From assembly GCA_016176525.1 (NCBI GenBank), contig JACOWZ010000003.1:537925-601924 (forward strand): a stretch of DNA of 64,000 bases. The letters are read 5' to 3'. Position numbers and translations under genes: made by a program. Of this stretch, positions 9,513 through 60,639 are shown one piece after another (the first letter of the stretch is position 1; each line of letters starts with the position of its first letter). The notes under the pieces were generated by a model. That model saw only the letters and a list, made by a program, of their open reading frames with translations. It searched no databases and was not told the DNA's origin. Source of the stretch: Candidatus Colwellbacteria bacterium. GTDB lineage: Bacteria > Patescibacteriota > Minisyncoccia > UBA6257 > Colwellbacteraceae.

Positions 9513-9517
9513 AAAAT

Positions 9518-10686: not shown

Positions 10687-10690
10687 ATTT

Positions 10691-13010: not shown

Positions 13011-13048
13011 GGAGTGGCTAAAATCTCTGTAGAGATTTTAGCCACTCC
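13011..13048. promoter_or_regulatory. Perfect 38-bp palindrome GGAGTGGCTAAAATCTCTGTAGAGATTTTAGCCACTCC upstream of mod
   Basis: 18-bp arms around a 2-bp centre, seen directly in the sequence. It lies about 160 bp upstream of the preferred mod ATG. No T-run follows on either strand, so it is more operator-like than terminator-like. Confidence 0.4.
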
Positions 13049-25456: not shown

Positions 25457-26977
25457 ATGGCTGATATTAAATTAGGTAAAGAGAAAGACGTAGTCTACTT
25501 TGGCAAAACCAGTTTTCGCAACGAACAGCGCGTTTTTGGCATAAAGCGCAAAGACCGCCGCCAGCATATGTATGTAATAGGCAAAACCGGCACGGGTAAG
25601 TCTGTGCTTTTGCAAAACTTAGCGTTGCAAGATATTGCAAACGGCGACGGGGTTTGTATTGTTGATCCCCACGGAGAATTTGTAGAAACCATTTTAGAAA
25701 AAGTGCCAAACGAGCGCATAAAAGACGTTATATATGTAAACCCCGCAGACTCGGATTTTCACGTTGGGTTTAACCCGCTGGAGCTGCCAGACCCAAAATA
25801 TAAGCATCTGATTGCATCCGGCTTGATGGGAATATTCACTAAAATATGGGCAAACGTCTGGTCTGCCAGAATGGAATATATTTTAAATAACATTATTCTT
25901 GCGCTATTAGACACACCGGGCTCAACCTTGCTTGGCATACCAAGAATTTTAGTTGATAAAACCTATAGGCAAAAAATTGTAGATAATATTAAAGACCCGG
26001 TTGTAAAAGCCTTTTGGGTGCATGAATACGAAAGCTGGCAAGAAAAATTCCGCAGCGAGGCAATAGCGCCGATTCAGAACAAAGTGGGCCAATTTTTATC
26101 CACATCTATAATTCGCAACATTGTAGGCCAGCAAAAAAGCACTTTTGACATATACAACCTTATGAACGCGAGAAAAATACTTTTAGTTAACGTTTCTAAA
26201 GGCAGAATCGGCGAAGACAACTCAAAGTTATTGGGAGCAATGTTTATTACAAAAATACAGCTTTCTGCCATGGAGCGCGTGCGTATACCCGAAGAAGAGC
26301 GCAAAGACTTCTTTTTGTATGTAGACGAGTTCCAAAACTTTGCAACAGACTCTTTTGCAGACATTCTATCAGAGGCCCGCAAATATAGGCTAGATCTTGT
26401 GCTTGCACACCAATACATAGGCCAGCTTGTAACAGATGTTTCCACAAAAGTACGCGATGCCGTATTCGGCAACGTTGGCACAATGGTAATATTCCACGCC
26501 GGGGCAGAAGACGCGGAGTTTTTAGAGAAGGAACTTACACCTGAATTTAGCGCAGATGACCTTGTAAAACTGCCAAACTATACCGTATATGTTAAGTTAA
26601 TGCTAAATGGCGTAACTACCCGGCCTTTCTCAGCACACACACTGCCGCCGATAGAGGTTGAAGAGAAAGAGAAAACCAAAGAAGAAATAATAAAAACCTC
26701 AAGAAAACTTTATTGCAGACCAAATAAACAAATTGAAGCAGAAATTAATGAGTGGAGCGGCATGATTATGGGGCCAGAAGCCGTACGCCGCCAGCTTAAA
26801 CAAACTCCAACACGGTATAGTAGGCCACAAGCAGGTAGAACTAAAAACCCGCATACAATTTCTCTTAGAGAGTTAGTAAAACCAGAAGAAACTCCAAAAC
26901 AACCTAAGCCCGAGAAGGTTGATAAATCTGCACTACGCGAGGTATTAAGCGAGGCCCTTAAGGATAAAGACAAGTAG
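25457..26977 (+). CDS. VirD4/TraG/TraD-like (type IV secretion coupling protein family) P-loop ATPase
   Basis: Walker A GKTGTGKS followed by CIVDPHGEF. Walker B-like FLYVDEFQNF. The all-alpha insertion and C-terminal LAHQYIGQL region are typical of TrwB/VirD4-like ATPases. It has no N-terminal TM helix. Confidence 0.5.
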   Translation: MADIKLGKEKDVVYFGKTSFRNEQRVFGIKRKDRRQHMYVIGKTGTGKSVLLQNLALQDIANGDGVCIVDPHGEFVETILEKVPNERIKDVIYVNPADSDFHVGFNPLELPDPKYKHLIASGLMGIFTKIWANVWSARMEYILNNIILALLDTPGSTLLGIPRILVDKTYRQKIVDNIKDPVVKAFWVHEYESWQEKFRSEAIAPIQNKVGQFLSTSIIRNIVGQQKSTFDIYNLMNARKILLVNVSKGRIGEDNSKLLGAMFITKIQLSAMERVRIPEEERKDFFLYVDEFQNFATDSFADILSEARKYRLDLVLAHQYIGQLVTDVSTKVRDAVFGNVGTMVIFHAGAEDAEFLEKELTPEFSADDLVKLPNYTVYVKLMLNGVTTRPFSAHTLPPIEVEEKEKTKEEIIKTSRKLYCRPNKQIEAEINEWSGMIMGPEAVRRQLKQTPTRYSRPQAGRTKNPHTISLRELVKPEETPKQPKPEKVDKSALREVLSEALKDKDK

Positions 26978-26978
26978 G

Positions 26979-28436
26979 TTATTCTTCCAATATAGGCAAA
27001 TCTACCGGTGCTTTTCCCTTGCGCGCCTCTTGGTATTCTATCTTTGTCGCGCCAACGCCAATAACAGGCGGGTGAAAGAGCGTTGCAAGCTCGTCAATAC
27101 CTAAAATAAAAGTTTCTACTTGCAGAGCCCCAAAAGGAACATTTCTGCCAAGTAATGAACCAAGACGCCTATATTTGCCTGTCACTTTAGGATTGGACTT
27201 TTGATTGAACATAGGGCTTAGGGTGTAGAGATATTGAGGAATATATCTTTCTTTTGCGGCGCGAAACATTAGCCTGCGCCTGCGCTCCAGCCTTTCTTTA
27301 CGGAAGAAATAATCACCCAGAATAAATTTTACAAAAACATTTTTAGAATCCGAGCCAACCTTATTTTTCTTTATAAAAGTTTTCATATTCGGCTTGAACG
27401 AGTTTAAGTCTCTGGTTGCATACTGCGCAATTCCAGCAAACCCAGCAGTAATATTAGAACCTGTAAAAGCGTTGCGCGAATCAATGTATGTAAACCTTAA
27501 TGCGCACTCAAAGGCAACTTTACTCATTTTTCTGTCAATTCGCTCCGCCGCCTCTTGTTCGCCTGGAGTTGCAAATTTAAACATAAGTTTTTCTTCTTTC
27601 TTGGCTGTTTCTGCGCCACCCTTTCCTCCCGCTACTGTGCTTATTAAATCAACTATAAAGTCTAAAAACGCTATAATTGGGTTTTTCTCGGGCTTCTTAG
27701 ATGGCCTACCGTAGAGCTTATCTACAATCTCTTTGCCTTTGTCTTTCCACTCTTTGCCATACTCATCAAAATGCGGGCGGATAATAAGCTGCAAGATAAG
27801 CATTTCGTCTTCTTTAAGGTTAGACATTACCTCGCCGAAGGTAGAAATTGGGTCAAGCCGTTTTTCTTCTGCCGCCTCCTCAAAAAAGTCGTAGGTCTTG
27901 AGCGGGTAAGCGTTATCTCTTGCAAGCATAAAGTCTGTAGAGAATGTACTGAATGTTTCGTTTGGCAGGTTTTCCGGCAATGAATCAAAATAATCCGGCA
28001 CTTCTGTAATTTCTACATTCGGATATTGCGCGAAGAAAGAGTCCATAACAGTTTTTTTGAAACCAGCCGGAACTCGGATATAAAAACCCATTTTGCCGGC
28101 ATGGCCCACAATTTCTAAAGACATCCACCGCTCAACCTCTCCTTCGACCCAAACCTGATACCAATTGTAGCCATATGAATACCAAGCATGAAAACCGGCA
28201 AAAACCTGCTCCATTGCTTTTGGAGATTTTTCGTTGTCTTTAGGAAAAATAACCTGCAAGACAACCCACTTTATCTTTTTAATCGTTGCGTCTTGCTTCC
28301 TTATAAGATAATTTTTAATTGCAATCTTAAAAACCCATCTTATAAACAAAAAGGTCAGTCCAAGAACAAGTAAAACCGCCCAATTCTCTAATAGGAATTG
28401 CCATATAAGCGAAGCGTAACTGATTATCAGATCCAT
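26979..28436 (-). CDS. Membrane-anchored hypothetical protein (2 N-terminal TM helices, large soluble domain). Convergent with the VirD4-like ATPase.
   Basis: 485 aa, with an N-terminal hydrophobic pair. I recognise no catalytic motif. Confidence 0.35.
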   Translation of the reverse strand: MDLIISYASLIWQFLLENWAVLLVLGLTFLFIRWVFKIAIKNYLIRKQDATIKKIKWVVLQVIFPKDNEKSPKAMEQVFAGFHAWYSYGYNWYQVWVEGEVERWMSLEIVGHAGKMGFYIRVPAGFKKTVMDSFFAQYPNVEITEVPDYFDSLPENLPNETFSTFSTDFMLARDNAYPLKTYDFFEEAAEEKRLDPISTFGEVMSNLKEDEMLILQLIIRPHFDEYGKEWKDKGKEIVDKLYGRPSKKPEKNPIIAFLDFIVDLISTVAGGKGGAETAKKEEKLMFKFATPGEQEAAERIDRKMSKVAFECALRFTYIDSRNAFTGSNITAGFAGIAQYATRDLNSFKPNMKTFIKKNKVGSDSKNVFVKFILGDYFFRKERLERRRRLMFRAAKERYIPQYLYTLSPMFNQKSNPKVTGKYRRLGSLLGRNVPFGALQVETFILGIDELATLFHPPVIGVGATKIEYQEARKGKAPVDLPILEE

Positions 28437-46347: not shown

Positions 46348-47778
46348 ATGCAACACGGACAGAACCTTGAAAACCAGAACGCAGAAACAAAACAGCTCTA
46401 CGGAGCTGCAGTGCTATTTGGCCTAGGCCAGCAAGGCAAGCGAGTAGTACAAAAGCTCGTGAACCTTCGAGAAGACGGCCACAAAGTGGATCTAACCGCA
46501 GTGTTTGATCCCAACCCCGCTAAGTTTGAGGAAGAAATCGTGCCGGGCAAAAGGCTCGCAGACATCTTCCCAGACACAAAGCGCATCGTCGGCACAATTA
46601 GAGATGCTCCTTTTGATATGAAAGGCATCACGGTTGTGTTTGACTGTTCAAACACCGTAAGTGACGGCGTGGAAAACCACACAGCAAACATGGAGGCGGT
46701 AGTGCAAAACGGCTTCCGCGGCACTTCGTGGAGCGGCAGAGACTGGTTCCGGACATATGCGGTTGAAAAACCGACATCTCTGGATGGCGAACGGCTAAAA
46801 AGACTTGTTATGGTTATGCGCAAGCGAAAGATCGCGCTAACCACTGACTACGTTGAGTCGTTTACTCCAGCAAAGAGCGCAACGATTAAGGACATTGCGC
46901 AGCACTCGCGAAAAGTTACGAGCATCAAGACATTCCGCCTGTCTTCCACACAAGAAAAGAGCGTAAAGACAAAACGCTTGGTTATCCGCCACAACAGCGG
47001 AGCTTGGGCAGACAAGGCGCATGACCCGATGCACGCAGCAATGGTTATTGCCGCGTCGCACGGAGACATAAGATACGCGCGCGTAGTTAAAGCAGATTTC
47101 CAAATGTTGGAGATCATCTCGCCGAACGGCATAAAATCGTACATCGCCAAAGACGGGCGGTTTGTGCCAGGCGAAGGTGAAGCAAAAAATCTGCAAGGTT
47201 TTAACGACGCGCATGCTAACGTAGCATGGAGTGCAAGCGGAGTAACCGTGCGCCATGTTTCTTCGCATCTTGGCGCAAAGCCCGAAGACCTGCGCGAAAT
47301 TGAGGGTTGGTTTACGCCAAACCTTAAGCACGCAGTTGCAGAGGCATCCACAAAGCGCGGAGAACCGCGCACACCGGCATCTGTTACTGCCGCATACGGC
47401 GCGAATTTCCAAAACTTGGAGGCTCGCGTCGCGAAGATTGAGTGCTCCGATGGTACTGCGTATGTTGAACAAACTTACGGCGCACCCGGAGGGCACTTCT
47501 CCGCTCGCATCAACCCTGACGGCACGGTAGACATTCTTTTTGAAGGTCCTCCGCCTGACGGAATGATGAAATGGGTATGGAATGCGTTCGCCGCGTCCGT
47601 GGGAGTTGAAAAACCGGCGTTCACAATGGCCGAAATCCTTAAGGACAACGAAATTATCCAACTCGCATCGTGGGCAGCAAACCGCGATACGACCTGGACT
47701 CTGGATTTAGGCGATCCCCAACAAGAGGCATTTGCCAAGTTCTTGGAAAAGCCCCTGCGAGAAGCAAACTGCTGGTAA
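46348..47778 (+). CDS. Gfo/Idh/MocA-like NAD(P)-binding oxidoreductase-family protein. GC-rich and probably horizontally acquired.
   Basis: N-terminal Rossmann-like VLFGLGQQGKRVVQKL...LTAVFDPNP and an EKP motif (YAVEKPTSL). GC content is clearly above the window background. Five overlapping alternate-frame ORFs are a GC-rich artefact. Confidence 0.45.
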   Translation: MQHGQNLENQNAETKQLYGAAVLFGLGQQGKRVVQKLVNLREDGHKVDLTAVFDPNPAKFEEEIVPGKRLADIFPDTKRIVGTIRDAPFDMKGITVVFDCSNTVSDGVENHTANMEAVVQNGFRGTSWSGRDWFRTYAVEKPTSLDGERLKRLVMVMRKRKIALTTDYVESFTPAKSATIKDIAQHSRKVTSIKTFRLSSTQEKSVKTKRLVIRHNSGAWADKAHDPMHAAMVIAASHGDIRYARVVKADFQMLEIISPNGIKSYIAKDGRFVPGEGEAKNLQGFNDAHANVAWSASGVTVRHVSSHLGAKPEDLREIEGWFTPNLKHAVAEASTKRGEPRTPASVTAAYGANFQNLEARVAKIECSDGTAYVEQTYGAPGGHFSARINPDGTVDILFEGPPPDGMMKWVWNAFAASVGVEKPAFTMAEILKDNEIIQLASWAANRDTTWTLDLGDPQQEAFAKFLEKPLREANCW

Positions 47779-47839
47779 AAAACCGGCAACCCCGCTAGAA
47801 TAAAGTCTAAGCGGGGTTTTTATTGTTATAAATGAAGAT

Positions 47840-48607
47840 ATGAAAGTTGATTATCATTTTCACCCGAATCTTCCGAAGAGCGACAAACGCGCGCGGCGTA
47901 AAGTTGCTAAAATATATTCTAAACTCCAAGATGCGGGTATTCGTTGCGTTATTATAACCGAACACGTTTACAAAAACTACCGGCGCGCGTGGCAGATGAT
48001 GTTGGAGCAAAAACCTGCAAACATTTCTATATTCCCCGGGCTAGAATATGTAACAAAAGAAAATATTGATATATGCATATTTGCAGAAACCGAAAAGATA
48101 TATCAACACGAATTTGTGCCATTTAAGTGGACTTATGAAGAAGTGCTCGCATACCTTAAGCAAAATACAGATATATTCGGTTATGTAACACACCCCCTTA
48201 CCTTAGGACAAACAAGTATTGTAGATAAAAAAGGAGCGGACTTTGCAAAACTTGCTATAAGCCAACTTGGAGCAGTTGAGGCGTCTTACACAGCTCTATC
48301 CAAGCTAAAAAATATTATAATTAGTAAGAAAACCTTAAATAGAATAAAAGACAACGAAAACCTACCGCAGGAATTCTATCCCAAGAATATAAAATTCCTA
48401 ACCACCGGAAGTGATGCGCATCATCCGTGGGATATAGGAATGTGCACAGAGGTTGAAGAAAAAAGCAGCGTGTTTGATTCAATAATAAGCAATAAAAGCA
48501 TGAAAGTAGTAGGCAAAAGAGATGCAACCGTAATACAAACTATAAGAAGTATATTAACGGTTATACACGAATGGTGGTTAAAAATCTGGTATAGGTTATG
48601 GAAATAG
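47840..48607 (+). CDS. PHP-domain (polymerase/histidinol-phosphatase-like) metal-dependent phosphoesterase
   Basis: MKVDYHFHPN (HxH). ...ITEHVY... ...TGSDAHHPWDIG, a PHP motif order with the terminal DAH. Confidence 0.55.
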   Translation: MKVDYHFHPNLPKSDKRARRKVAKIYSKLQDAGIRCVIITEHVYKNYRRAWQMMLEQKPANISIFPGLEYVTKENIDICIFAETEKIYQHEFVPFKWTYEEVLAYLKQNTDIFGYVTHPLTLGQTSIVDKKGADFAKLAISQLGAVEASYTALSKLKNIIISKKTLNRIKDNENLPQEFYPKNIKFLTTGSDAHHPWDIGMCTEVEEKSSVFDSIISNKSMKVVGKRDATVIQTIRSILTVIHEWWLKIWYRLWK

Positions 48608-49131
48608 TAATACAAGTAATTTGGCTTTTATTGCCGGCGGCTGTCGCAAATATTTGCCCCGTAATTTTCCGCTTTTTGCCTATATTAAATTACCCGGTTG
48701 ATTTTGGTAAAACCTTTAACGGTAAGCCAATCTTAGGGCGCCACAAAACTTACAGGGGTTTCCTAGTAGGGATCTTGGGCGGAATATTAACAGCACAAGC
48801 GCAAAAAGCTCTTTACCCAATAATGGAAGCTTATTCAATAGTAGATTACTCGCAGATAAATATATTTATATTCGGTTTTGCGCTTTCTGCCTCTGCTCTT
48901 CTGGGAGATACCGCAAAGAGTTTTTTAAAAAGAAGGTTGAACATCGCACCGGGCAAACCATGGATTCCATTTGACCAAATTGACTGGATTGTAGGGTCAC
49001 TTATCGCGGCGAGTTTTTGGGTTACATTAAACCTCTCCATAATAGTGGTAGGCATTTTTGTGCTAGGCACGTTGCACTTTATACTCAACTTGATTGGGTA
49101 TGCAACCGGCCTAAGAGAAGAAAATCTATAA
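48598..49131 (+). CDS. CarS-like (DUF46, CDP-archaeol synthase family) integral membrane cytidylyltransferase
   Basis: 177 aa with 5 TM helices. LLPAAVANICPVI and FGKTFNGKPILGRHKTYRGF resemble the CarS PAYxANxxPV and GxxKTxxG cytoplasmic-loop motifs. This is from memory of the family, not from a database search. Confidence 0.5.
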   Translation: MEIVIQVIWLLLPAAVANICPVIFRFLPILNYPVDFGKTFNGKPILGRHKTYRGFLVGILGGILTAQAQKALYPIMEAYSIVDYSQINIFIFGFALSASALLGDTAKSFLKRRLNIAPGKPWIPFDQIDWIVGSLIAASFWVTLNLSIIVVGIFVLGTLHFILNLIGYATGLREENL

Positions 49132-49699
49132 GAGCTTTAGTTGCTAAAAAAGCGGCAAAAAGCATAGATGTTATGTTTAGGTAATCCGCACCTGTAAAAA
49201 CATAAACCGTAAAAATCGCATAAGAAAGGTATGCCAAAACATTGGGGAATGCGCCTGCCATAGGGCGGATAAGCCAATCACTGACACGCCCCAGATTCTT
49301 GCGCACTACCATAAGAACCCTTGCAAGCAGCATAAAATAAACATAGGCTGCCCCGGCGGCTCCAGAGACTAAAGAGACGGCCGTAAGACCGATAATAAAC
49401 AAAGTAAAATTCAAGTTATCTACTAAAACGTCTGTAAACTTACCTTTATCTGAATCTACTTTTAAATATCTCGCCAACCCACCATCAAACGCATCCATTG
49501 CAAGGGCAGCAAGTAAAAAATAAAAAGACATAAGCGGATTTGTGCCAACAAAATATATAAACCCAAGCATCAAAAAAACGCCCGCAAAACTCAATGCTGA
49601 TGGGTGAACCCTAAAAAATGCCAAGACTTTAACTATAGGCCTAATTAGGGGCTCACGGATATCGCGTAGCCAATAATACATTTTCTCTTCGCCGTTCAT
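49085..49699 (-). CDS. CDP-alcohol phosphatidyltransferase family protein
   Basis: DAFDGGLARYLKVDSDKGKFTDVLVD fits the D-G-x2-A-R-x8-G-x3-D-x3-D signature. 204 aa, polytopic. Confidence 0.7.
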   Translation of the reverse strand: MNGEEKMYYWLRDIREPLIRPIVKVLAFFRVHPSALSFAGVFLMLGFIYFVGTNPLMSFYFLLAALAMDAFDGGLARYLKVDSDKGKFTDVLVDNLNFTLFIIGLTAVSLVSGAAGAAYVYFMLLARVLMVVRKNLGRVSDWLIRPMAGAFPNVLAYLSYAIFTVYVFTGADYLNITSMLFAAFLATKALIDFLLLGRLHTQSS

Positions 49700-49711
49700 A
49701 TAGAAATTATA

Positions 49712-49740
49712 ACAAAACCCCGCATTGCGGGGCTTTTTGT
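49712..49740 (-). terminator. Rho-independent terminator after rplL. Hairpin CCCCGC-ATT-GCGGGG with flanking T/A runs, so it looks bidirectional.
   Basis: GC-rich 6-bp stem directly after the rplL stop. U-runs are present in both orientations. Confidence 0.55.
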
Positions 49741-51206: not shown

Positions 51207-54200
51207 TTAGAAGTCAATTGTGATATTTGATACCCTAAGCTGATAATCGCCATTCTGGAAATCAAACCGTATTGTATTGCTCACAGTTGAAAATACGTTA
51301 AATGTGCGGGTGGCATAAGTTCCGGTGTTACTCTCGGTGCACGTGCCGGCGCCTGTGTATGGAGTTGTAAAAGAGAACGTGTCCACCAAAGAGCCGTCAA
51401 AATAAGTTCTGATGTATGCTGTAGACCCATTACTATTGGCGTAATAACAATATTTGTAAGAAATTGCTACCGGGGAAGAGGTATCGCTAACACCATGGAA
51501 GGTTGCTAGTGTACCTGTGGTGCCATTAGCGCCTGTGGAATTAAGTTTACGGGCGTGGCGGCTAATTCCAGATTCATTTTCAAACTCCAAAGATGACGCC
51601 CAGTCATTGATGCCAAAGCTTGGAAAATCAGGATAAGTTCCATCTTCAAAAACATGCACAGAACCGCCATAATCTATATCTTGATACAAAGCCACTCTAT
51701 ATGTTGTACCTACCTTTGCCGATGAAGCGAAATCACCCCAGCCATAACTGTGCAAATTTGAGATAGCTGAACAGCAACTAAATCCTGTGGTGCTGCCTCC
51801 ATACCACGAATCTTGATACAGCGCTATAGGATAGTTATATACTACTGTTGCTGTGCGGCTGGAGTTTACGGTAAGTTTACACCTAACCCAATCAAGAGTT
51901 GTGCTCGTAGGAGTTCCGCTGTAACTCCACACCTGGTCATCACAGCCTGTAAAATCTTCTATAATCTTACCACTCAGTTCTCCTGTAGATGTAAGTTCAA
52001 TGTAGGTGCCGCCACTTATGCTTGGTTTTGAATAGTTTGTAGTGCCTCCATATGTCGATGGGCTGCCGGTAATAGAGACGCCAGATAATCCACTTGAGTT
52101 AACATTAAGTGTATATGACGCATAGGATCCCTGCGCATAGTAGTAGCCTTGATAGTAGCCTTGGTAATAGCCTTGATAGTAGCCTTGGCCGTAGTAATAT
52201 CCTTGATAATAGCCTTGATAGTATCCTTGACCGTAGTAATATCCTTGGCCGTAGTAATAACTTTGGTAATATCCTTGATAATATCCTTGGCCGTAGTAGT
52301 AGCCTTCTGAGTAGTAAGCTCCTTGGCTGTAGTAGTATCCTTCTGCGTAAGGTGTGACGCTAAAAGCAAACTCCGCTGGTGTTGTATCTTCATTTAACAC
52401 CGCGTCTCTGGCTTTAACCTCAAATGTATGGCTTCCGACTGACTGAGTCGGTAAAGTAACCGAAGTTGGAGTTGACCACGATGACCAACTACTACTGCCG
52501 CCCGTGAATGAATATTGCTTCCCTGATCCGCCGTTATATAGCTCTGAGATCTCTGCAGCAGATAAAGTACGGTTCCAAATTGCAAGTTCGTCAATTTTAC
52601 CGTCGGAGTCTCCGTAAAACGGAGCGTTCGTGCAGGTAGATTGATACATAAACCTATAAAGACCAATGTTAATCGGACAGCCGGATGTAAAAATTGGAGT
52701 TGTAGTAGGTGGGCTAAATGTAGCGCTTAACGCACCATTAATATAAGTCTTAAATGTGGTTCCAGACTTAGTGGTAGCGATATGATACCACTGGCCTGCA
52801 GAAAGCGCGCCGGTATCCCCCAGACTTGTCCACGATTCTTGTACTAGTGTTCTTACATTGCCGCTAGAGCTCAATACATAACTTCTGAAAGCCGTTGATT
52901 CACTTGATGTGGGTATATCAATAATTGTGAAGGACTCTCCTCCAACCCAACCATCTATAAATATCCAAGCGGCATAACTAAAGTCGCCTGATGGGAAGGT
53001 AGGGCTGCTCACTCGCGCATAATCATCGGCGCCATCAAAGCTTAACGCAGAGCCTATTTTGCCCGTTGCCCATGTAGTGTTATTAAATAAAGATCCATTG
53101 CTCGTGCCATGGCTATCAGAAAATGATGTGCCAGAGCCCTCATCAAATTTCCAGTAAGATATAAGACTATCTGTTAAAGTGGAAGATCCTCCCCCACCTC
53201 CTCCACCGCCCGGTACAAATTCAACATCCGCCTGGCCGTACATATAGTTTGTAACAGTATTCGTAGGCATACTATTACTTTGATACAAATACCCAGAATT
53301 TTTTATATTCACGCTACCGGAAGTTACAGGGGTGGTAAATGTTGTATAGCAGTAACCCCCGTCCCTTACAGCCACAAAATAATCAGTGTTTGCTGTAATA
53401 GAAACCGGAGTTATGTTTGTATAGACCCAATTAGTTGTACCTGTTGTGTTTACTGTTGCGCTCGCAAGTAATGCGCTGTCGCTTACTCTATAAAGTCTAA
53501 CGGTTCTTGTGGCTGAAGCACATCTAGACCCTAATTTAGTTATCTGGCCGTCAATAGACGCAGAAAATTTATAGCCCATATTATAGTCGCCAGTAGTTGA
53601 ACTTGGTGTTGCTATGCCGGTTGCCTGAAGCGGTGTTTCTGGTGTTCCGGAGTCTTGGCTAACCTGCCAGCTAAATGTGCATGGCGAGTTTGCGCCACCG
53701 CAATCAGACCCAGACCCACCATAACCGAATGTGGGAGTGGAATCTGATGTGCTGGCTCCGGGATTGCTTGTAATTACTGTGTTAGGCGCTGTGGTATCAA
53801 TAGTAAAGCTATATGAGGCTGGTGTAAGGTCTTCGTTTGGTACGTTCGTTACTGCATCCCTCGCTTTTACATAAAATGTATGCCCGCCATCAAGTAGGGC
53901 ACCTGTAGTCACCGATGCGGTAGTTGACCATGCGGAGTATGTGCCACTGTCAATTTTCCAGCTATATTGGCATGGGGTATGCGCATCTGTACAGCTATAT
54001 GCAAAGCTGGGTGTAGTGTCGGTTGAAACTGTGAGCGGGTTTGAAGTAATAGATGTTGCCGGACCCGTTGCATCAACCGTAAAGCTAAAGCTAGCCGGCG
54101 TTGTATCTTCTGTGCCAGCGCTATCTCGCGCTTTTACATAAAATGTGTGTGCACCATCAGATAAGGCTCCAGTAGTTGCTGAAAGCAAGGCTGACCATGC

Positions 54201-54740
54201 GGAATATACTCCGCCGTCAACTTGCCAAGCGAATTCACAGGTAGTTGTGTCGCAACCATATCCAAAAGTTGGGGTTGAATCATTAATTAATGTGCCAGGA
54301 GTAGAAAGAATCGCCGTAATCGGTATGCTATTTATCGTATTTAAAGTGTACCTCCTAAACCAACCGACACCCGGGCTTGTGTCTGATGCAACCTGCACAT
54401 CATTGTCCGGCCTGCCGTTGCCATCTGCATCTTGCATCCAAAGGTATGTTTTACGCAGTTGCGCATCTCCAATAAGCACTATTGAACCCTGAATATTAAT
54501 TGAATAGCCCGAGTTCCAAACGATTGTTTGCCCTGTGTTAACAGTAAGAGTAGTTCCCGAACTGACAGTTAAGTTGCCTTGCTCAATACCATCGGTGCCG
54601 CTGGGGAACTGACACGATGAAGACACAGTGGTGTTGCCCGAGGCATCCCTGGAACAATCAGCAGCAAAGGCGGGCTCGCCGTTTAAAAGCACAAAGAAAA
54701 ATGCGATAAAAGCTAATATGCTGATAGTTTTTTTAATCAT
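51207..54740 (-). CDS. Giant secreted surface protein (1177 aa) with Ig-like repeats, a poly-Gly linker, a LamG/concanavalin-like domain and a Y/G/Q-rich tandem repeat
   Basis: Signal peptide MIKKTISILAFIAFFFVLLNGEPAFA. Three repeats of about 85 aa (TPTFGYGCDTT...GAHTFYVKARDSAGTEDTTPASFSFTVD). GGGGGGGG. LamG-like ...DELAIWNRTLSAAEISELYNGG. (GYYQ/GYYYGQ)n block. Confidence 0.6.
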   Translation of the reverse strand: MIKKTISILAFIAFFFVLLNGEPAFAADCSRDASGNTTVSSSCQFPSGTDGIEQGNLTVSSGTTLTVNTGQTIVWNSGYSINIQGSIVLIGDAQLRKTYLWMQDADGNGRPDNDVQVASDTSPGVGWFRRYTLNTINSIPITAILSTPGTLINDSTPTFGYGCDTTTCEFAWQVDGGVYSAWSALLSATTGALSDGAHTFYVKARDSAGTEDTTPASFSFTVDATGPATSITSNPLTVSTDTTPSFAYSCTDAHTPCQYSWKIDSGTYSAWSTTASVTTGALLDGGHTFYVKARDAVTNVPNEDLTPASYSFTIDTTAPNTVITSNPGASTSDSTPTFGYGGSGSDCGGANSPCTFSWQVSQDSGTPETPLQATGIATPSSTTGDYNMGYKFSASIDGQITKLGSRCASATRTVRLYRVSDSALLASATVNTTGTTNWVYTNITPVSITANTDYFVAVRDGGYCYTTFTTPVTSGSVNIKNSGYLYQSNSMPTNTVTNYMYGQADVEFVPGGGGGGGGSSTLTDSLISYWKFDEGSGTSFSDSHGTSNGSLFNNTTWATGKIGSALSFDGADDYARVSSPTFPSGDFSYAAWIFIDGWVGGESFTIIDIPTSSESTAFRSYVLSSSGNVRTLVQESWTSLGDTGALSAGQWYHIATTKSGTTFKTYINGALSATFSPPTTTPIFTSGCPINIGLYRFMYQSTCTNAPFYGDSDGKIDELAIWNRTLSAAEISELYNGGSGKQYSFTGGSSSWSSWSTPTSVTLPTQSVGSHTFEVKARDAVLNEDTTPAEFAFSVTPYAEGYYYSQGAYYSEGYYYGQGYYQGYYQSYYYGQGYYYGQGYYQGYYQGYYYGQGYYQGYYQGYYQGYYYAQGSYASYTLNVNSSGLSGVSITGSPSTYGGTTNYSKPSISGGTYIELTSTGELSGKIIEDFTGCDDQVWSYSGTPTSTTLDWVRCKLTVNSSRTATVVYNYPIALYQDSWYGGSTTGFSCCSAISNLHSYGWGDFASSAKVGTTYRVALYQDIDYGGSVHVFEDGTYPDFPSFGINDWASSLEFENESGISRHARKLNSTGANGTTGTLATFHGVSDTSSPVAISYKYCYYANSNGSTAYIRTYFDGSLVDTFSFTTPYTGAGTCTESNTGTYATRTFNVFSTVSNTIRFDFQNGDYQLRVSNITIDF
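52110..52340 (-). repeat. In-frame tandem short repeat encoding (G-Y-Y-Q / G-Y-Y-Y-G-Q)n inside the giant surface protein
   Basis: 12-15-nt units (tagtagccttga / taatatccttga...) repeated about 15 times. Protein: EGYYYGQGYYQGYYQSYYYGQGYYYGQGYYQGYYQGYYYGQGYYQGYYQGYYQGYYYAQG. Confidence 0.7.
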
Positions 54741-55201
54741 AATGTTAGCTCTATTATTGAATCGCTCGTGGCATCATATGCCGAGATAACCGCGTTGTAG
54801 CCTGTAACACTATCATAATTTGCAGCCCACTTGCCCTGCCAAAAGCCATCTCTGCTTCTGCCGTTTAAGAGCTCTAGTTGATACGGATATTCCTGTGTTT
54901 CGGTTTTTATAGTCACTGTGACCGATTTTACGGGCCTAAAATTTGTAACATGCACGCTAAACATCTGCTCCTCGCCGCGCTTAATATCAAACGGGTCAAT
55001 AAAGCCGCTTACTATTCTTGGACCCCTCTCGCCGCTAGAAACAGTAAACACCTCGCCCCTTTCCGACGGGCTCGGCACAAATTTATCACTATTCACTACC
55101 TGCTCTTCGCTAAAAGGAAATAAAGTTATAAATACAAAAAATATGGCAATTGCAAGCGCAAAGAGAGCTAGATAATCTTGTTGACTGCCTTTTTTAGCCA
55201 T
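54737..55201 (-). CDS. Small secreted/membrane-anchored hypothetical protein of 154 aa
   Basis: N-terminal hydrophobic helix. It overlaps the giant protein start by 4 bp. Confidence 0.35.
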   Translation of the reverse strand: MAKKGSQQDYLALFALAIAIFFVFITLFPFSEEQVVNSDKFVPSPSERGEVFTVSSGERGPRIVSGFIDPFDIKRGEEQMFSVHVTNFRPVKSVTVTIKTETQEYPYQLELLNGRSRDGFWQGKWAANYDSVTGYNAVISAYDATSDSIIELTL

Positions 55202-55719
55202 TAATTAATTATAACATTATAAAGCACAGCGATGCTGTGGAGAATTGGCAAGGCAGATGCATCCCCAGACGGCTCTACAATTATGCGCCAGAGCATTGCC
55301 CTGCCTTTAGTATTTGGAAAAACAACTCTTTCTCCAACTTTCACACTATGCCAAGTTGCGCCGTCGTTAGAAAGTTCCAGAGTAATATCGCTATCGCCAC
55401 CGGTAAAATCCAGATTATCTATTGAGGCAGATCGCACCTCGCCACCGTAGGTGTTGAGGTTTGCAGAGACAAGCTGGCCGGGCGAGATAAAGGCCATTGC
55501 CTCGGGGTCATGCCGCATAGTTGTTTCTGCCATATTAATCCATGTCGCGCTAGAAAATATATCTGTAAAGCTTGCGTCGCGTGCGTCCTCCGGCGCCTCG
55601 CTCGTTTTACCATCCGTATAAATCCACGCTAGAAGTATGGCGCTTGCTAAAAGCAAAACAACAAGCGCGCCAAACGCTATTCGTTTACTATTAGTTTGCC
55701 CGTTACTTCGTTCCTGCAT
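55201..55719 (-). CDS. Small membrane-anchored hypothetical protein of 172 aa
   Basis: N-terminal TM helix ALVVLLLASAILLAWIY. It is contiguous with its neighbours. Confidence 0.35.
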   Translation of the reverse strand: MQERSNGQTNSKRIAFGALVVLLLASAILLAWIYTDGKTSEAPEDARDASFTDIFSSATWINMAETTMRHDPEAMAFISPGQLVSANLNTYGGEVRSASIDNLDFTGGDSDITLELSNDGATWHSVKVGERVVFPNTKGRAMLWRIIVEPSGDASALPILHSIAVLYNVIIN

Positions 55720-56243
55720 GAATTTTGGCAGTAAAATTCGTATTCGCCATGGCCAGAAACCTGGAATTGTATAGTTTCTGTTGTGCCCTCAATTATTTCT
55801 TTATAAACTCCCAGGTCCGAGAAAAAGATATCGTAGTTGCCGTCAACCGCTGTAAAATTAATCTTTACAATATCACCGGTGTTTACAACGATTGTACTCG
55901 GCACATATTTTTGATTCTCCCCGCTTATATCAAACTCGCGGCGCTCAACTGTGCCGACTTGTGTAACTTTTGTTGGTACAGCAACATCTTGATTGGCTGA
56001 ACTCCCCACTTCGGGGGTAGCTACTGTCTCTGTTATTTCTTTTCTTGTACCGCCCTCTACGGTTTCTAATGCATCTGGGTCGTTTGGTCTGAATCTGTCT
56101 TCACCCAAAACTACCACGCCTTCATCGGTTAACAATTGCGGTTCTTGTGTAGGCGCAGGTTTAAGTTGTAAAAATAAAATAATAATAACAGCAACTGCGG
56201 CAACCAGTGCCATACCCCATATTAACTGTGCCTTAACACTCAT
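55677..56243 (-). CDS. Small secreted hypothetical protein of 188 aa, possibly with an Ig-like beta domain
   Basis: N-terminal TM/signal segment, a Pro/Thr/Glu-rich linker, then a beta-rich C-terminal domain. I recognise no catalytic motif. Confidence 0.35.
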   Translation of the reverse strand: MSVKAQLIWGMALVAAVAVIIILFLQLKPAPTQEPQLLTDEGVVVLGEDRFRPNDPDALETVEGGTRKEITETVATPEVGSSANQDVAVPTKVTQVGTVERREFDISGENQKYVPSTIVVNTGDIVKINFTAVDGNYDIFFSDLGVYKEIIEGTTETIQFQVSGHGEYEFYCQNSCRNEVTGKLIVNE

Positions 56244-56259
56244 AGTTTTATTATATCAC

Positions 56260-59200
56260 TTATAATTTTTCGTTTATGTTAATCGCGCCTTCTTTTATGT
56301 GCTCTCCAACTTCATCATCTGTTATTGCTCTATCCGCTACCAACCTGTAGCTTACCTCTCCTTCGCCGCTGCCGTGGATTGTAAGGGTATTTGCGATTGT
56401 GTCTTTGGTGTACCAAACGCGGCCATCAAACCCCGGGGTTAAAAACACCTGCAGACCCTCCATATCCGCACCAAAGTTTGTTATTTGGTAGAAAACCCAA
56501 AGATTACTGCCTCGCTTAAGGTTATCAAAATCAATAATATATTCATTCCCGGCTAGGTGCGCAGTGTCTACCACTTCTTCTTTTGTGGAACCCGCCATAA
56601 ATGGCGCATAGGTTGCGTAGTCTTCGCCGCCAATGTTGTACACCGGGTCGATCGTGGCAACTGTAATTTTGTTTACGCCAAGAATGTTGTTGTTATTCAT
56701 GTTTAAGTTGCCGTCAAAACGCCCTTCGCCTGCAACATGAAGTTTTACGGCAGGACTCGCCGTTCCGATGCCAACATTCCCGCTGCCTGGCATTAGCCGA
56801 ATATGATCACCCACTCCCCCGGCAGAATATAAAGAAAGATGGTTACCATTTTCCGCTTTTATACAAAATTCGTCTGTAACGTTTGTACAACTAGTCCATG
56901 CCCCGTCATACAACATAATACCCTGGCGTGTTGCTCCAGAATAAAACCCTAGCCACTCGTAAGTGGTGTCGTCTGCTCGCGCGCTATGGAATCCGATTTT
57001 ATCGTTTGTGCTGTTGATATCGGTGCCGATAGTCAGATTACCGGAGAATGTTCCCGATCCTCCATTCACTATATTTCTTGATGAATCTATAAATTGTGTG
57101 GTGCCGACTTTAAGGTCTCTCACCCTAAGGGTCTCGTATCCGGTTCCTGGGTTGTCTATAACCGCGAGATCCCCGCTGTTGTCGCCATCCACATAACCGA
57201 ACTGGGACGCAACCGCGCCGGAGTAGTGGAAAGATATTCTTGGGGCGTCGCCCGCGCCGGCGTTCCAATCCTGTATAACCTCTAGGGGCGCTTGGTTGTA
57301 AGCTAGTCCTGCGGAGCCCTGCAACAGACGCATCCTTCCGCTAACATCTAATTTGGACCCTGGACTCGTAGTCCCTATGCCGACGTTACCACTGGTGTTG
57401 GCAAAAAGTACGTTAGTGCGGTAGGCAAAGTTGCCTCCGCTTGCAACACTCAAGGTAGCTCCACCCGATCCCACCTCTAATGTGCCGTCAGTGCGCATTA
57501 TTCCAGCATTGTGGTAGATATTCTTAGAGCCATAACTTCGAATCCATGTAGTGTCTGACATATACCATCCACCACCATATGTTTCAAACAATAGCGGGTT
57601 ACTGCCTATAAGGCGTAGATTACCGCTTCCACGAATGTCTCCTATAACATCAAGGGGGTAACTTGGGCTCACCGTGCCTACACCTACACGCTGATTAGTT
57701 GCGTCAACGTATAAAACCGGTGAAGTACTCGCCGCCGCGTCAAAACGATAGCTGCCTTTTGTAGTGGTAGAACCAAACGTGCCCGGCGTAATTTGCCCAG
57801 CCGCAATTGCACTTGTGGTTTCTACATTGCCCGTAATGGTGCCGGATACATCCAAATCGCCGGTGATGTTTGTGTTACCGTTTACGTTTAGTTTGTATAC
57901 ACCGGGCGTTGTGGTGGCAATACCGACACTGCCGAATGTCGGAACAAGAAGAACGTTATTAGCTACACTAATCATATCTACATTAGCACCAGTAGCGCTA
58001 GCCGAAGTTCTAAGAACTATAGCATCATTTGTGTTATCTCTTACTTGTATGACTAATCTAGAGTCCTCTGTATTCAGATTATGCTCTCCATAGATTAATC
58101 CGTCGTCTGTAGACCCAATACCCGCTGTGCCGCTGTTTGTTCCCGCGTTGAATTGAATGGCATTTATTGGAATATTAACGTTTCCAATAACCTCAAGTTT
58201 TGTTGTTGGCGAGGCCGTCCCTATTCCAACGTTGCCAGATCTTTGAATCAGAAATCTAGGTGTCGTTAAATTATTATCATCAAATACTTGAAAGGCATTT
58301 GTACTATCATTGACTATAATATTCACAGTTGCATTTCCAGCTGCTCCGTTACCAACTTTAAGTTTGGGTTGAGCATCATCACTTATTCCTCTATCTGCAA
58401 CTTCTAAATTAGCACCTGGGCTAGCCGTACCTATGCCGATATTGCCGCTTCCATCTATTCTCATTCTTTCCGATGGAGCGTCGTTTGTTGAACCTGCGTT
58501 GAATATAATATCTCCCCCTGATTGATTAGCGTTGATATTCAATTCTCCACTCTGAACACCGAAACCGTAAACGGTGGTACCAGATTCATAAAGTCGAATA
58601 TGTGCAGTGGGATTTGTACCCCCAGTATCATAGAACGTTCCAAAGGACAATTTAGATCCCGGCGCCGTCGTCCCAATACCAACGTTGCCGTTCACGGAAA
58701 GCTTGGCCGTGTGGGACGTTACTCCTGCGTCATAACCAATTCCCACCTCGTTTTCGCCTTTCGCCTTAAAAGACACTATCTGGTTGCCGTCGCCATTGCC
58801 TACCCCGAAATTCTCGCCGCCAGTACTCGACTCGCCGACTAAGTAAAGTGTGTCATAGTCAGCAGTCGGCCCGGTGACGGTCCACCGGTAATCGATGGGG
58901 TTGGTTGTTCCGGTGGGCTCAATCCTTGACATACCCTTGACCGTCAACGGGTTACCCGGAGATGTCGTCCCGATGCCGACGTTGCCGCCTGCGGCTATTG
59001 TCAGCCTGTCCAATGAGTTTGTCCTAAATCTAAAATCCCTTGAACCAGAATTGTGCCCTATTGAAAGACCTGTATTGTCCATTACGAAGTCTGTTGTGTA
59101 TCCTGATGTTGACGTTGAACCATTGAATCTGAAAGCTGTATTTACACCATCTTGTATATGCAATTTCGTTCCAGGGCTCGTCGTCCCTATACCTACCCGC

Positions 59201-60639
59201 TCATTAGCTCCGTCAATAATAGCCCAGCCAGTTGTGAGCCCAGTCTTTCTAAATGTATAGTTTACAGAAGAGCTAGGATATGCAGAGCCAAAAGTGCCTC
59301 CACTAACTTGCGCTGCGACAAGTTCACTTGTGGTTTCTACATTGCCAGTAATTGTGCCAGATACGTCTAAATTACCAGTTATGTTTGTGTTGCCTGCGAC
59401 GTTCAGCTTATAAGTTCCCGGAGTAGTAATACCGATACCAACATTACCTGTTGAATCTATAGTAACTCTGTCAACTCCATTATCCTGGATATGCAAAGCA
59501 CTTATATCTGCATCAACCGATCCGATATATACATCATTAACACCATTTATCCCAAGGATTCTTGTTGATGCTCCTGCGGAATTCTTGGCTCTGTAATACT
59601 GTGCGTTTGCGTTCAGAGTTATGTCGCCGTTAACATCGAGCTTTGAACCCGGCGTGACTGTACCTATGCCGACGTTGCCGGAGTTGAGAATTGTCATGGC
59701 CGTTGTCGCATTGGTTCCCAAATAGATGTGATGGTTCTCGCGTTGCCACAGGTAGACATCCTGGTTTGAATCCACTTGGACATCAAATCCGTCACCGGAC
59801 GCAGACCCCGTGTTAGCGTTGCTTATCTTGATCTGAGAATCGGTTCCTGCACCATTCACATGCAATTGTCTTTGAGGACTTGTCGTCCCGATGCCGACGT
59901 TGCCGCTAACAACCAAACTATTTGCTGGCGCAGCAGTGCTTGCGGAATACCCTATTGCCGCGTTGCCATTGACTTGAAGTTTTGAACCTGCTGTTGCCGT
60001 GCCAATGCCAACCCCTCCGGTTCCGGATGGTTCAAGGATGATATCTCCTCCCCCCGGCTGTTCATTTTTAATATGGAAATCAAAAGTGTTAGCATTCGGA
60101 AAACCCAATTTTGCAAGGCTAGTCCAGCCCCCAACGGTTGGTGAAAAACCATACTCTATGTATGGTATGGCGGTGGCTGCGTCGGTTGCGGCACTTCGCA
60201 AGCGGAGGTGCGGGTTTATACCTTTAATCTCTAGTTTGGCTGCCGGTTCGCGAACGTTATCAACGAAATCATCGCCAATACCGACATTTGTGTTGTTATG
60301 AAAAAGGTTTGTCGTTGACACCCAAGCGGGCGCGCCCAGTGCATTCGTGCCTCCATAAATAGTTGCGCCTTGTATTACCGATGGTAACAGACCTTCAATC
60401 TCTCTCCATTCTGCTAAACCATCAGTGTTTGTGGCAGTAAGAACTGTGCCATCCGTCGGGTTGCCGCCGCTTATCTGAATACGCCTGCCGCCGGTAATTC
60501 CCACCGTAGTGTCTGAAACCGTTATAGCCGAACCTCCACCGCCAGGCGGTTGTTGAGTTGGTTGTGCAAAAACAACAGTAGCGCCAATTATGCTCACAAA
60601 GAGAAGCACAAGCGCCCGATTTAACACTCTTATAACCAT
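56260..60639 (-). CDS. Giant secreted repeat protein (1459 aa) with at least 12 repeats of a GNVGIGTTSPGxKL module. Probably a beta-helical fibre or adhesin.
   Basis: Signal-peptide-like N-terminus. Recurrent units such as SGNVGIGTTSPQRQLHVNG, GNVGIGTVTPGSKLDVNG, GNVGIGITTPGTYKLNVAGNTNITGNLDVSGTITGNVETTS (seen twice), GNIGIGTASPGANLEV and GNVGIGTASPAVKLHVAG. Confidence 0.6.
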   Translation of the reverse strand: MVIRVLNRALVLLFVSIIGATVVFAQPTQQPPGGGGSAITVSDTTVGITGGRRIQISGGNPTDGTVLTATNTDGLAEWREIEGLLPSVIQGATIYGGTNALGAPAWVSTTNLFHNNTNVGIGDDFVDNVREPAAKLEIKGINPHLRLRSAATDAATAIPYIEYGFSPTVGGWTSLAKLGFPNANTFDFHIKNEQPGGGDIILEPSGTGGVGIGTATAGSKLQVNGNAAIGYSASTAAPANSLVVSGNVGIGTTSPQRQLHVNGAGTDSQIKISNANTGSASGDGFDVQVDSNQDVYLWQRENHHIYLGTNATTAMTILNSGNVGIGTVTPGSKLDVNGDITLNANAQYYRAKNSAGASTRILGINGVNDVYIGSVDADISALHIQDNGVDRVTIDSTGNVGIGITTPGTYKLNVAGNTNITGNLDVSGTITGNVETTSELVAAQVSGGTFGSAYPSSSVNYTFRKTGLTTGWAIIDGANERVGIGTTSPGTKLHIQDGVNTAFRFNGSTSTSGYTTDFVMDNTGLSIGHNSGSRDFRFRTNSLDRLTIAAGGNVGIGTTSPGNPLTVKGMSRIEPTGTTNPIDYRWTVTGPTADYDTLYLVGESSTGGENFGVGNGDGNQIVSFKAKGENEVGIGYDAGVTSHTAKLSVNGNVGIGTTAPGSKLSFGTFYDTGGTNPTAHIRLYESGTTVYGFGVQSGELNINANQSGGDIIFNAGSTNDAPSERMRIDGSGNIGIGTASPGANLEVADRGISDDAQPKLKVGNGAAGNATVNIIVNDSTNAFQVFDDNNLTTPRFLIQRSGNVGIGTASPTTKLEVIGNVNIPINAIQFNAGTNSGTAGIGSTDDGLIYGEHNLNTEDSRLVIQVRDNTNDAIVLRTSASATGANVDMISVANNVLLVPTFGSVGIATTTPGVYKLNVNGNTNITGDLDVSGTITGNVETTSAIAAGQITPGTFGSTTTKGSYRFDAAASTSPVLYVDATNQRVGVGTVSPSYPLDVIGDIRGSGNLRLIGSNPLLFETYGGGWYMSDTTWIRSYGSKNIYHNAGIMRTDGTLEVGSGGATLSVASGGNFAYRTNVLFANTSGNVGIGTTSPGSKLDVSGRMRLLQGSAGLAYNQAPLEVIQDWNAGAGDAPRISFHYSGAVASQFGYVDGDNSGDLAVIDNPGTGYETLRVRDLKVGTTQFIDSSRNIVNGGSGTFSGNLTIGTDINSTNDKIGFHSARADDTTYEWLGFYSGATRQGIMLYDGAWTSCTNVTDEFCIKAENGNHLSLYSAGGVGDHIRLMPGSGNVGIGTASPAVKLHVAGEGRFDGNLNMNNNNILGVNKITVATIDPVYNIGGEDYATYAPFMAGSTKEEVVDTAHLAGNEYIIDFDNLKRGSNLWVFYQITNFGADMEGLQVFLTPGFDGRVWYTKDTIANTLTIHGSGEGEVSYRLVADRAITDDEVGEHIKEGAININEKL

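Follow-up and report, generated by a model that had tools for sequence, protein, structure and literature searches.

Why would a bacterium carry a lipid-activating enzyme of the CarS type, a family that is typically archaeal, and what would it use it for? The question is raised by three overlapping genes in a 64-kb stretch of DNA (hereafter the window), about 10% of a 645-kb contig, from a metagenome-assembled genome (MAG) of Candidatus Colwellbacteria, which belongs to the Candidate Phyla Radiation (CPR, Patescibacteria). The genes encode a PHP phosphoesterase, a CarS-like cytidylyltransferase and a CDP-alcohol phosphatidyltransferase. Our reading, to which we give a probability of roughly 55%, is that the trio is a module that builds or rebuilds the head groups of membrane lipids whose cores the cell probably cannot make. 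In order along the window, with lengths in amino acids (aa) and coordinates from the open reading frame (ORF) list, the genes are:

47840-48607, plus strand: PHP-fold metal-dependent phosphoesterase, 255 aa; proposed lipid head-group phosphatase
48598-49131, plus strand: CarS-family CTP:lipid-phosphate cytidylyltransferase, 177 aa, five helices (PF01864)
49085-49699, minus strand: CDP-alcohol phosphatidyltransferase, 204 aa (PF01066)

The first two genes overlap by 10 bp (ATGGAAATAG, read from the sequence). The CarS-like and transferase genes are convergent and overlap by 47 bp according to the ORF coordinates. A preliminary description of the window, made from its letters alone, had placed the three genes at 47840-49699 with the same two overlaps, and its coordinates agree exactly with the ORF list. 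It had also named the phosphoesterase, the transferase and the CPR host correctly.

NCBI lists a protein identical to the CarS-like one as 'MAG: CDP-archaeol synthase [Candidatus Colwellbacteria bacterium]', and the phosphoesterase is HYS87_03445, labelled 'hypothetical'. The CarS annotation is already in public databases and the presence of this gene alone is not new. What is new is the module itself, which includes an uncharacterised PHP phosphoesterase and recurs in CPR contigs in varied order and orientation, together with the breadth of CarS in CPR and its occurrence inside acyl-lipid salvage operons. In the literature searched we met no description of any of these, and no paper discussing CarS in CPR bacteria.

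The CarS-like protein

A hidden Markov model search assigns the 177-aa protein to the CarS-like family PF01864 (E 3e-36, 125.5 bits against a cut-off of 22, model positions 3-172 of 175). The preliminary description had proposed this CarS/DUF46 identity, and the search did not point to an unrelated family. The two strings it quoted in support, LLPAAVANICPVI and GKTFNGKPILGRHKTYRG, are both present in the translation. It had also called the protein '5-TM'; the AlphaFold model (mean pLDDT 95.1) has five long helices. Family membership is secure. Functional equivalence to characterised CarS is not certified, because the score against NCBIfam NF003114 (138.6 bits) falls slightly under the equivalog cut-off of 148.

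CarS of Aeropyrum pernix (5GUF) is the only solved relative found by sequence (E 1.8e-13) and the only significant Foldseek match of the model (TM 0.72/0.81, root-mean-square deviation 2.6 Å). In an alignment with 80 relatives the window protein retains 27 of the 28 columns conserved at a level of at least 85%. All invariant residues are kept (N18, G47, K50, T51, G54, D104, S108, K111, R112, D126, Q127 and D129), as are the polar motifs of the family (PA..AN; G..KT..G; GD...SF.KRR; PFDQ.D), and a second alignment agrees; the roles of these residues are read from conservation alone.

The match to the CdsA family PF01148 is marginal and partial (24.1 bits over 72 residues, 45-116 against model positions 165-230 of 264). 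The statement in the preliminary description that the window holds no canonical cdsA was borne out: Pfam found none among essentially all ORFs of at least 150 aa, and a looser core of the CdsA signature, KR..KD..HGG..DR, matched nowhere in the six frames. This core, the only pattern run on the six frames, is part of the PROSITE signature, which we take to be S-x-[LIVMF]-K-R-x4-K-D-x-[GSA]-x2-[LIF]-[PGS]-x-H-G-G-[LIVMF]-x-D-R-[LIVMFT]-D.

The Pfam scan of the 64 kb also gave no pls, pgsA, pssA or psd genes. The genes for archaeal core lipids (glycerol-1-phosphate dehydrogenase, G1PDH; the synthases GGGPS and DGGGPS; the reductase GGR) and for isoprenoid synthesis were found neither in the window nor in the flanks of the CPR loci described below. 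In about 9 kb of sequence past the end of the window (L086), cdsA, plsXYC, GGGPS, DGGGPS and G1PDH are likewise not found. As the window is only about a tenth of the contig, these absences tell little about the whole genome.

The CDP-alcohol phosphatidyltransferase

The 204-aa protein matches PF01066 (E 1.3e-10, 42.3 bits against a cut-off of 22) and its catalytic motif, DAFDGGLARYLKVDSDKGKFTDVLVD, is intact (D69-x2-D72-G-x2-A-R-x8-G86-x3-D90-x3-D94). It scores far below every NCBIfam equivalog cut-off, including those for archaetidylinositol-phosphate (AIP) synthase (NF040950, 47.9 bits against 180), PgsA (TIGR00560, 19.5 against 109.1), phosphatidylinositol-phosphate (PIP) synthase (NF045883, 17.1 against 170) and the two phosphatidylcholine synthase models (16.2 against 400 and 15.5 against 440).

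With a profile of its own subfamily, the best solved relative is the PIP synthase of Renibacterium (5D92, E 1.5e-6), followed by PssA, AF2299 and Staphylococcus aureus PgsA, with 4MND (DIPP synthase) as a weak match. The first place of 5D92 may be taken as a mild hint about the acceptor.

Transferases adjoining homologues of the PHP gene are orthologues of the window protein (54% identity in locus L088, 38% in L089, 39% in L090 and 29% in L095). They form a single orthologous CPR subfamily, distinct from the transferases that lie beside CarS elsewhere. A further transferase, in L094 (4892-5455, minus strand), lacks the last Asp of the D..DG..AR..G...D...D motif (GAYLDLVAS) and is paired with a 29%-identical PHP protein. 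From its sequence, it may be inactive or have an altered chemistry.

The PHP phosphoesterase

The Pfam match of the 255-aa protein to PHP_C is marginal (E 1.8e-4, 21.4 bits against a cut-off of 21.3), and the N-terminal PHP region of the NCBIfam model TrlF matches at 5e-8. Sequence searches of the Protein Data Bank (PDB) gave nothing significant. Its AlphaFold model (pLDDT 96.2) retrieves PsfC from the PDB with Foldseek (7RTY, E 1e-9, TM 0.62-0.65) and then EndoQ, RNase AM and the PHP domains of Pol III. Among 42 homologues E41, H42, H118, D192 and H194 are invariant, and H6 and H8 nearly so; these lie in HxH, (T/E)H and GSDAH motifs, which we take to hold the metal ligands of the PHP fold. 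The model thus indicates a member of the PHP superfamily, with a PHP barrel and a predicted His/Asp/Glu metal site.

The last 24 residues (approximately 231-254) form an amphipathic, Trp/Lys-rich helix in the model that would be suited to a seat on the membrane surface. The family is small, with only 43 homologues, all labelled hypothetical and all from CPR or other bacteria. The PgpA, PAP2 and HAD families were not matched by the protein in the Pfam and NCBIfam scans.

A recurring gene module

Genomic contexts were looked up for PHP homologues, giving eight including the window itself. In six of these (the window, L088, L089, L090, L094 and L095) a CDP-alcohol transferase is adjacent to the PHP gene, and in three of the six CarS is adjacent too. 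The seven other contexts are arranged as follows:

L088: DgkA (diacylglycerol kinase, DAGK_prokar), then PHP, CarS and a convergent transferase, that is, the trio of the window plus the kinase
L089 and L090 (Pacebacteria): PHP and an overlapping convergent transferase, no CarS
L094: PHP (29% identical) and a convergent transferase, no adjacent CarS
L095: transferase, PHP and CarS on one strand, with 17- and 20-bp overlaps
L091 and L093: no lipid genes near the PHP homologue

In L095 all three proteins are orthologues of those in the window. L088 and L095 are bacterial contigs: L088 includes RF-1 and SHMT, and L095 what we presume, from our reading of its N-terminal sequence, to be a DnaG-like gene. 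The linkage of PHP and transferase persists down to 29% identity between the PHP proteins, and this pair is the conserved core of the module. Since the linkage survives changes in order and orientation, it is good evidence that the products act in one pathway. A PHP homologue was found in none of the 80 CarS loci obtained from the genome scan described next.

Distribution and neighbours of CarS

A scan of one genome per species returned 108 CarS relatives, a mix of DPANN archaea (Woese- and Nanoarchaeota) and many CPR lineages (Komeili-, Peri-/Peregrini-, Kerfeld-, Falkow-, Andersen- and Saccharibacteria, and Microgenomates). The nearest homologues are only about 50% identical to the window protein, and two of the closest loci are truly archaeal, one with Rpb7/RpoE nearby (L002) and the other with XPD and DHH-CID (L005). 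CPR and DPANN members appear interleaved in a neighbour-joining tree. In the bootstrap analysis no mixed CPR/DPANN clade reaches 70%, and the only two robust clades are both CPR-only. The placement of the window protein itself receives 29% at most, and we therefore make no claim about a donor or a direction of transfer. On this sequence evidence CarS-like genes are widespread in CPR, with no particular transfer history claimed.

ORFs were called in 75 of the 80 CarS loci fetched, and the neighbours were clustered. The commonest neighbour is a CDP-alcohol transferase, which lies within three genes of CarS in 39 of about 75 loci and is mostly directly adjacent. DPANN loci often add a phosphatidylserine decarboxylase. 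Eight CPR loci (L009, L012, L014, L016, L022, L024, L027 and L039), in most of which CarS is at approximately 6001-6540, have in common a same-strand operon. Its genes encode an H+-pyrophosphatase, PlsC acyltransferases (one or two), an AMP-binding ligase, a phospholipase of the patatin type, CarS and trigger factor. Six of the eight group in a single clade, with a bootstrap value of 100%. The operon has the look of a full route of lipid salvage and re-acylation ending in the formation of a CDP-lipid.

In the Andersen-/Saccharibacteria clade a cyclopropane-fatty-acid (CFA) synthase lies two to four genes upstream of CarS. PlsC, AMP-ligase, patatin and CFA synthase are enzymes of acyl ester lipids, not of isoprenoid ether lipids. 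The genes for G1PDH, GGGPS, DGGGPS and GGR are not among the recurrent neighbours of CarS in the 75 loci.

Two other observations concern lipid-related neighbours. An Exo_endo_phos protein (238-263 aa) is found beside CarS or the transferase in L004, L006, L033 and L066, which are DPANN or unclassified; it may correspond to the PHP partner without being homologous to it. Just past the end of the window (beyond 63704; L086), and directly upstream of its last gene, are genes for a FAD_binding_4/FAD-oxidase_C protein (549 aa), a dihydrofolate reductase and a fatty-acid desaturase (PF00487, 284 aa). The desaturase suggests that this CPR cell modifies acyl chains.

Proposed pathway

Enzymes of the CarS/CdsA type convert CTP and a lipid phosphate to a CDP-lipid and pyrophosphate. 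CDP-alcohol transferases then transfer the phosphatidyl group to an alcohol, and CMP is released. Those that use a phosphorylated alcohol, such as PgsA and the PIP and AIP synthases, need a phosphatase to finish the product, and this would be the simplest reason for so tight a gene linkage between a phosphoesterase and such a transferase.

In the pathway that we propose, the CarS-like protein, whose family is clear and whose substrate is presumed, would use CTP to turn a phosphatidic-acid-type lipid into a CDP-lipid with release of pyrophosphate. The lipid would most likely be a scavenged or re-acylated diacyl phosphatidate rather than digeranylgeranylglyceryl phosphate (DGGGP). The transferase, as its family and motif indicate, would move the phosphatidyl group onto an alcohol and release CMP; the presumed acceptor would probably be phosphorylated, for example glycerol-3-phosphate or inositol-1-phosphate. 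The PHP protein, held at the membrane by its C-terminal helix, would finally remove the terminal phosphate to give the mature phospholipid. Its conserved linkage, intact metal site and amphipathic tail point to this role, which is filled elsewhere by PgpA, PgpB, PgpC or PgpP.

A diacyl substrate is favoured by the contexts that include PlsC, acyl-AMP ligase, patatin, DgkA, CFA synthase and desaturase, and the contexts of the CPR homologues likewise speak for salvage of acyl lipids rather than synthesis of ether lipids. Complete lipid pathways are missing from CPR genomes, but ordinary fatty-acid lipids are attributed to these cells, with neighbours as the presumed source (PMC7242380). The same interpretation has been given for genome-reduced archaea in which CarS and the head-group enzymes are kept and core synthesis is not (PMC12411855).

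Several results weigh against this pathway. The CarS of Archaeoglobus fulgidus has a strong preference for DGGGP relative to phosphatidate, and an Escherichia coli cdsA mutant is not rescued by it (reviewed in PMC9385802); given that preference, use of an acyl phosphatidate would require a change of specificity. In our alignment no column separates the bacterial/CPR members from the archaeal/DPANN members. As regards the acceptor, the best NCBIfam score of the transferase, at 47.9 bits against 180, is to AIP synthase. The PHP enzymes whose substrates are known comprise nucleases, phosphatases acting on nucleotides or histidinol, and an oxidative decarboxylase, with no lipid phosphatase among them, and in the literature searched we found no link between PHP and a phosphatidylglycerophosphate (PGP) phosphatase. 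Finally, two of the PHP homologues (L091 and L093) have no lipid genes nearby.

A bolder version, which we hold only tentatively and consider doubtful as a whole, is that CPR widely use an archaeal-type CarS, exchanged with DPANN, in place of CdsA on a diacyl lipid, and that the PHP protein represents a fifth, non-homologous class of head-group phosphatase, for PGP or PIP. If this were true, CarS would have crossed the 'lipid divide' in its substrate, from isoprenoid ether to diacyl ester, and the PHP protein could be a lead to the phosphatase for PIP or AIP, of which we know no identified example.

The substrate matters in either case. If CarS acts on diacyl phosphatidate, it is not the gatekeeper of the archaeal/bacterial lipid divide that it has been taken to be (PMC9385802); if it acts on an archaeal lipid, some CPR cells carry archaeal-type lipids. 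CPR account for much of bacterial diversity; they have ordinary membranes and no complete lipid pathway, and the way in which such membranes are made and tailored is an unsettled matter (PMC7242380). In the proposed role, the PHP protein would bring an enzyme of a new class to the final step in making phospholipid head groups, a step settled only recently even for Gram-positive bacteria (PMC11804483). The trio and the operon with PlsC, acyl-AMP ligase, patatin and H+-pyrophosphatase would also provide clonable enzymes with which to test lipid salvage and head-group remodelling.

Comparison with known systems

The window protein shares with known CarS (A. fulgidus AF1740; A. pernix 5GUF; PF01864, NF003114) its family, length, five-helix fold and polar residues, and therefore presumably its chemistry (CTP and lipid phosphate to CDP-lipid and pyrophosphate). 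It differs in its CPR host, in its score (138.6 bits, slightly under the equivalog cut-off of 148) and in that archaeal core-lipid genes are not nearby. In addition, its CPR homologues lie in acyl-lipid operons, and its substrate may be one on which characterised CarS performs poorly, diacyl phosphatidate (PMC9385802).

The likeness to CdsA (PF01148; Thermotoga maritima 4Q2E) is one of proposed role, namely phosphatidate activation, and the superfamily relation is distant. The window protein is about 100 residues shorter and has five helices where CdsA has more, and Foldseek did not retrieve 4Q2E. E. coli CdsA, for example, has about 285 aa.

The transferase belongs to the same family as the PIP and AIP synthases and PgsA, has the same catalytic motif and is likewise paired with a phosphatase-type gene, whereas its scores are far under their equivalog cut-offs and it falls in its own PHP-linked CPR subfamily. 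The preliminary description had spoken of 'archaeal-type' head-group genes. This term suits CarS only, since the transferase has its own CPR subfamily and the PHP family was found only in bacterial/CPR contigs.

It had also suggested that the PHP protein could be a lipid-phosphate phosphatase in the manner of PgpP. The strong, conserved linkage supports a lipid partner, but PgpP is a HAD protein (PMC11804483) and the likeness is that of a functional analogue at most. The known PGP phosphatases belong to the PgpA, PAP2 or HAD families (PMC11804483). The role proposed here, removal of a terminal phosphate, is that of PgpA, PgpB (PAP2), PgpC and PgpP (HAD) (PMC11804483), while the fold of the window protein is unrelated to theirs (PHP), which makes it a possible analogue only.

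A parallel in logic is the head-group remodelling of genome-reduced archaea such as Panguiarchaeum, with CarS, PgsA, PssA and Cls and no isoprenoid synthesis (PMC12411855): a symbiont has the activation and head-group steps only and relies on others for its lipid cores. In the present case a bacterium is the host, the phosphoesterase is a new partner and an acyl lipid core is probable.

Alternative explanations

One alternative is genuine archaeal-type chemistry, in which CDP-archaeol would be made from DGGGP or archaetidic acid taken from archaeal neighbours or a host, and the transferase and PHP protein would finish archaetidyl-inositol or archaetidyl-glycerol lipids for an archaeal or mixed membrane. 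The window protein is a CarS member over its full length, as its sequence, fold and conserved residues show; among its closest relatives, at about 50% identity, are the true DPANN archaea of L002 and L005, and no residue column divides CPR from DPANN members; the best NCBIfam match of the transferase is to AIP synthase, and characterised CarS prefers DGGGP (PMC9385802). We nevertheless consider this chemistry unlikely, in view of the lack of GGGPS, DGGGPS, G1PDH, GGR and isoprenoid genes in the window and the CPR flanks, the proximity of the CPR homologues to PlsC, AMP-ligase, patatin, DgkA and CFA synthase, and the fatty-acid-based lipids attributed to CPR in one lipidomic study (PMC7242380). 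The same module might also work with the PHP protein first, as a phospholipase C/D-type phosphodiesterase that takes scavenged phospholipids and strips off their head groups; the diacylglycerol or phosphatidate so formed would be phosphorylated again, by DgkA in the loci that have it, before CarS activates it and the transferase attaches a new head group. This order of events would be consistent with the DAGK_prokar gene directly beside the trio in L088, with the patatin phospholipase within the CPR CarS operon and with the Exo_endo_phos proteins in a comparable position (L004, L006, L033 and L066), a fold that includes enzymes of the sphingomyelinase and phospholipase C type. PHP enzymes, too, include the phosphodiesterases RNase AM and EndoQ, although we know of no PHP phospholipase. 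DgkA is, however, absent from the window by Pfam, and the PHP gene is linked most tightly to the transferase and not to CarS, which fits a pair of synthase and phosphatase better, so that a stripping role appears decidedly unlikely.

A role outside the membrane would have the CarS-like protein act on polyprenyl phosphate, or as a CTP-dependent polyprenol kinase, with the transferase and PHP protein making a soluble or wall-linked phosphodiester (DIPP-synthase-like or teichoic-acid-like). The CTP-transferase superfamily also holds dolichol and phytol kinases, and undecaprenol kinases occur among the homologues of DgkA. One member of the CDP-alcohol transferase family is DIPP synthase, after which a phosphatase step follows (4MND is a weak match here); PHP and transferase are paired without an adjacent CarS in L089, L090 and L094, and the module of the window lies beside the cell-wall genes mraZ-rsmH-ftsL-ftsI. 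Against this, the CarS match is full length, with all the family-conserved polar residues and the same fold, and the adjacency of CarS and transferase in 39 loci is what a donor/user pair for a CDP-lipid predicts. The position near mraZ is not conserved either, as the corresponding gap in the syntenic relative L092 holds other genes, and we regard a non-membrane role as very improbable. An assembly or binning artefact, or the decay of a recent and functionless transfer, is barely credible. CarS is typically archaeal, its closest homologues are only about 50% identical and the trio is missing at this site in L092, but it sits between bacterial mraZ and rplL on a contig of 644,793 bp and has the same gene order in a 22-kb Logan contig that was assembled independently. 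Its GC content (37-41%) is the same as that of the neighbouring genes, and this match and the independent assembly together make an artefact unlikely. The reading frames are intact, all conserved catalytic residues are retained and the same trio is found in other bacterial contigs (L088 and L095). Homologue searches show that all three genes have conserved homologues; they are therefore not chance ORFs.

Setting of the locus

The preferred reading, a head-group module, concerns three genes set in ordinary CPR housekeeping DNA: the window includes mraZ-rsmH-ftsL-ftsI, rplJ-rplL, dnaK/dnaJ/grpE, dnaB and secDF and, from Pfam on its ORFs, restriction-modification genes and giant surface proteins. 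The features immediately around the trio are:

46348-47778, plus strand: near-orphan 476-aa protein, a putative NAD-dependent dehydrogenase remotely like Gfo/Idh/MocA, adjoining the PHP-CarS unit
47788-47823, plus strand: terminator-like hairpin and U-run between the 476-aa gene and the PHP gene (RNA fold)
49714-49736, no strand assigned: GC-rich hairpin, flanked by T-runs on either strand, in the gap that separates the rplL stop from the start of the transferase gene (terminator-like sites on both strands in the scan)

The hairpin at 47788-47823 (-17.9 kcal/mol in the RNA fold, z = -4.08) is predicted to mark the upstream boundary of the PHP-CarS unit. The terminator consensus scan allows a loop of 3-8 nt and missed it, its apical part being longer. 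The hairpin at 49714-49736 is probably the terminator of rplL. It occupies nearly all of the 40 nt that separate the two genes and so leaves no obvious room for a promoter of the transferase's own; the transferase gene may depend on read-through from rplJL.

In L092 the mraZ-rplL gap holds a homologue of the 476-aa gene and a hexokinase-like gene, and PHP, CarS and transferase are absent from it. The trio at this site looks like a lineage-specific insertion.

The neighbouring 476-aa gene

The 476-aa protein (HYS87_03440, also 'hypothetical' and on the same NCBI contig as the PHP gene) has one homologue among 5.8e9 clusters and 14 matches, including the query itself, among 1.84e9 representatives. 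It matches no Pfam or NCBIfam model, and a sequence search of the PDB gave nothing significant. A profile weakly matches 3EZY (1.6e-3) and 4HKT (6.9e-3), four of ten relatives match PF01408, and the protein carries GLGQQG and VEKP motifs (GxGxxG and EKP in Gfo/Idh/MocA).

The idea that this gene is a MIPS-like member of the module that makes a head group was rejected. A terminator hairpin lies between it and the PHP gene, its GC content is 52% against about 40% in its neighbours, it looks Gfo/Idh/MocA-like instead, and none of the other PHP or CarS contexts examined contains it. Its only close relative, in L092, is followed by a 265-aa protein and then the hexokinase-like protein, with no trio. 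The gene is probably a separate transcription unit and no conserved part of the module.

Other features of the window

A restriction-modification-like island lies at 5378-13045 on the minus strand and encodes an Mrr-type nuclease, a ResIII helicase of 897 aa, ClpP and an N6/N4 DNA methylase of 784 aa. Two giant proteins, probably surface proteins, are encoded at 51207-60639, also on the minus strand, and are followed by small ones that include a cupredoxin-like protein. The first (1177 aa) has Laminin_G_3, Big_13 and crystallin-like domains and a long Tyr/Gly/Gln repeat (GYYYGQGYYQGYY...) around 52016-52393; the second (1459 aa) has no Pfam match. Finally, at 25457-28436, a VirB4/TraG-like ATPase (DUF87, AAA_10, TrwB) adjoins a DUF8128 protein and a sigma-70 region-4 protein, and this region may be an element of the conjugation or competence type.

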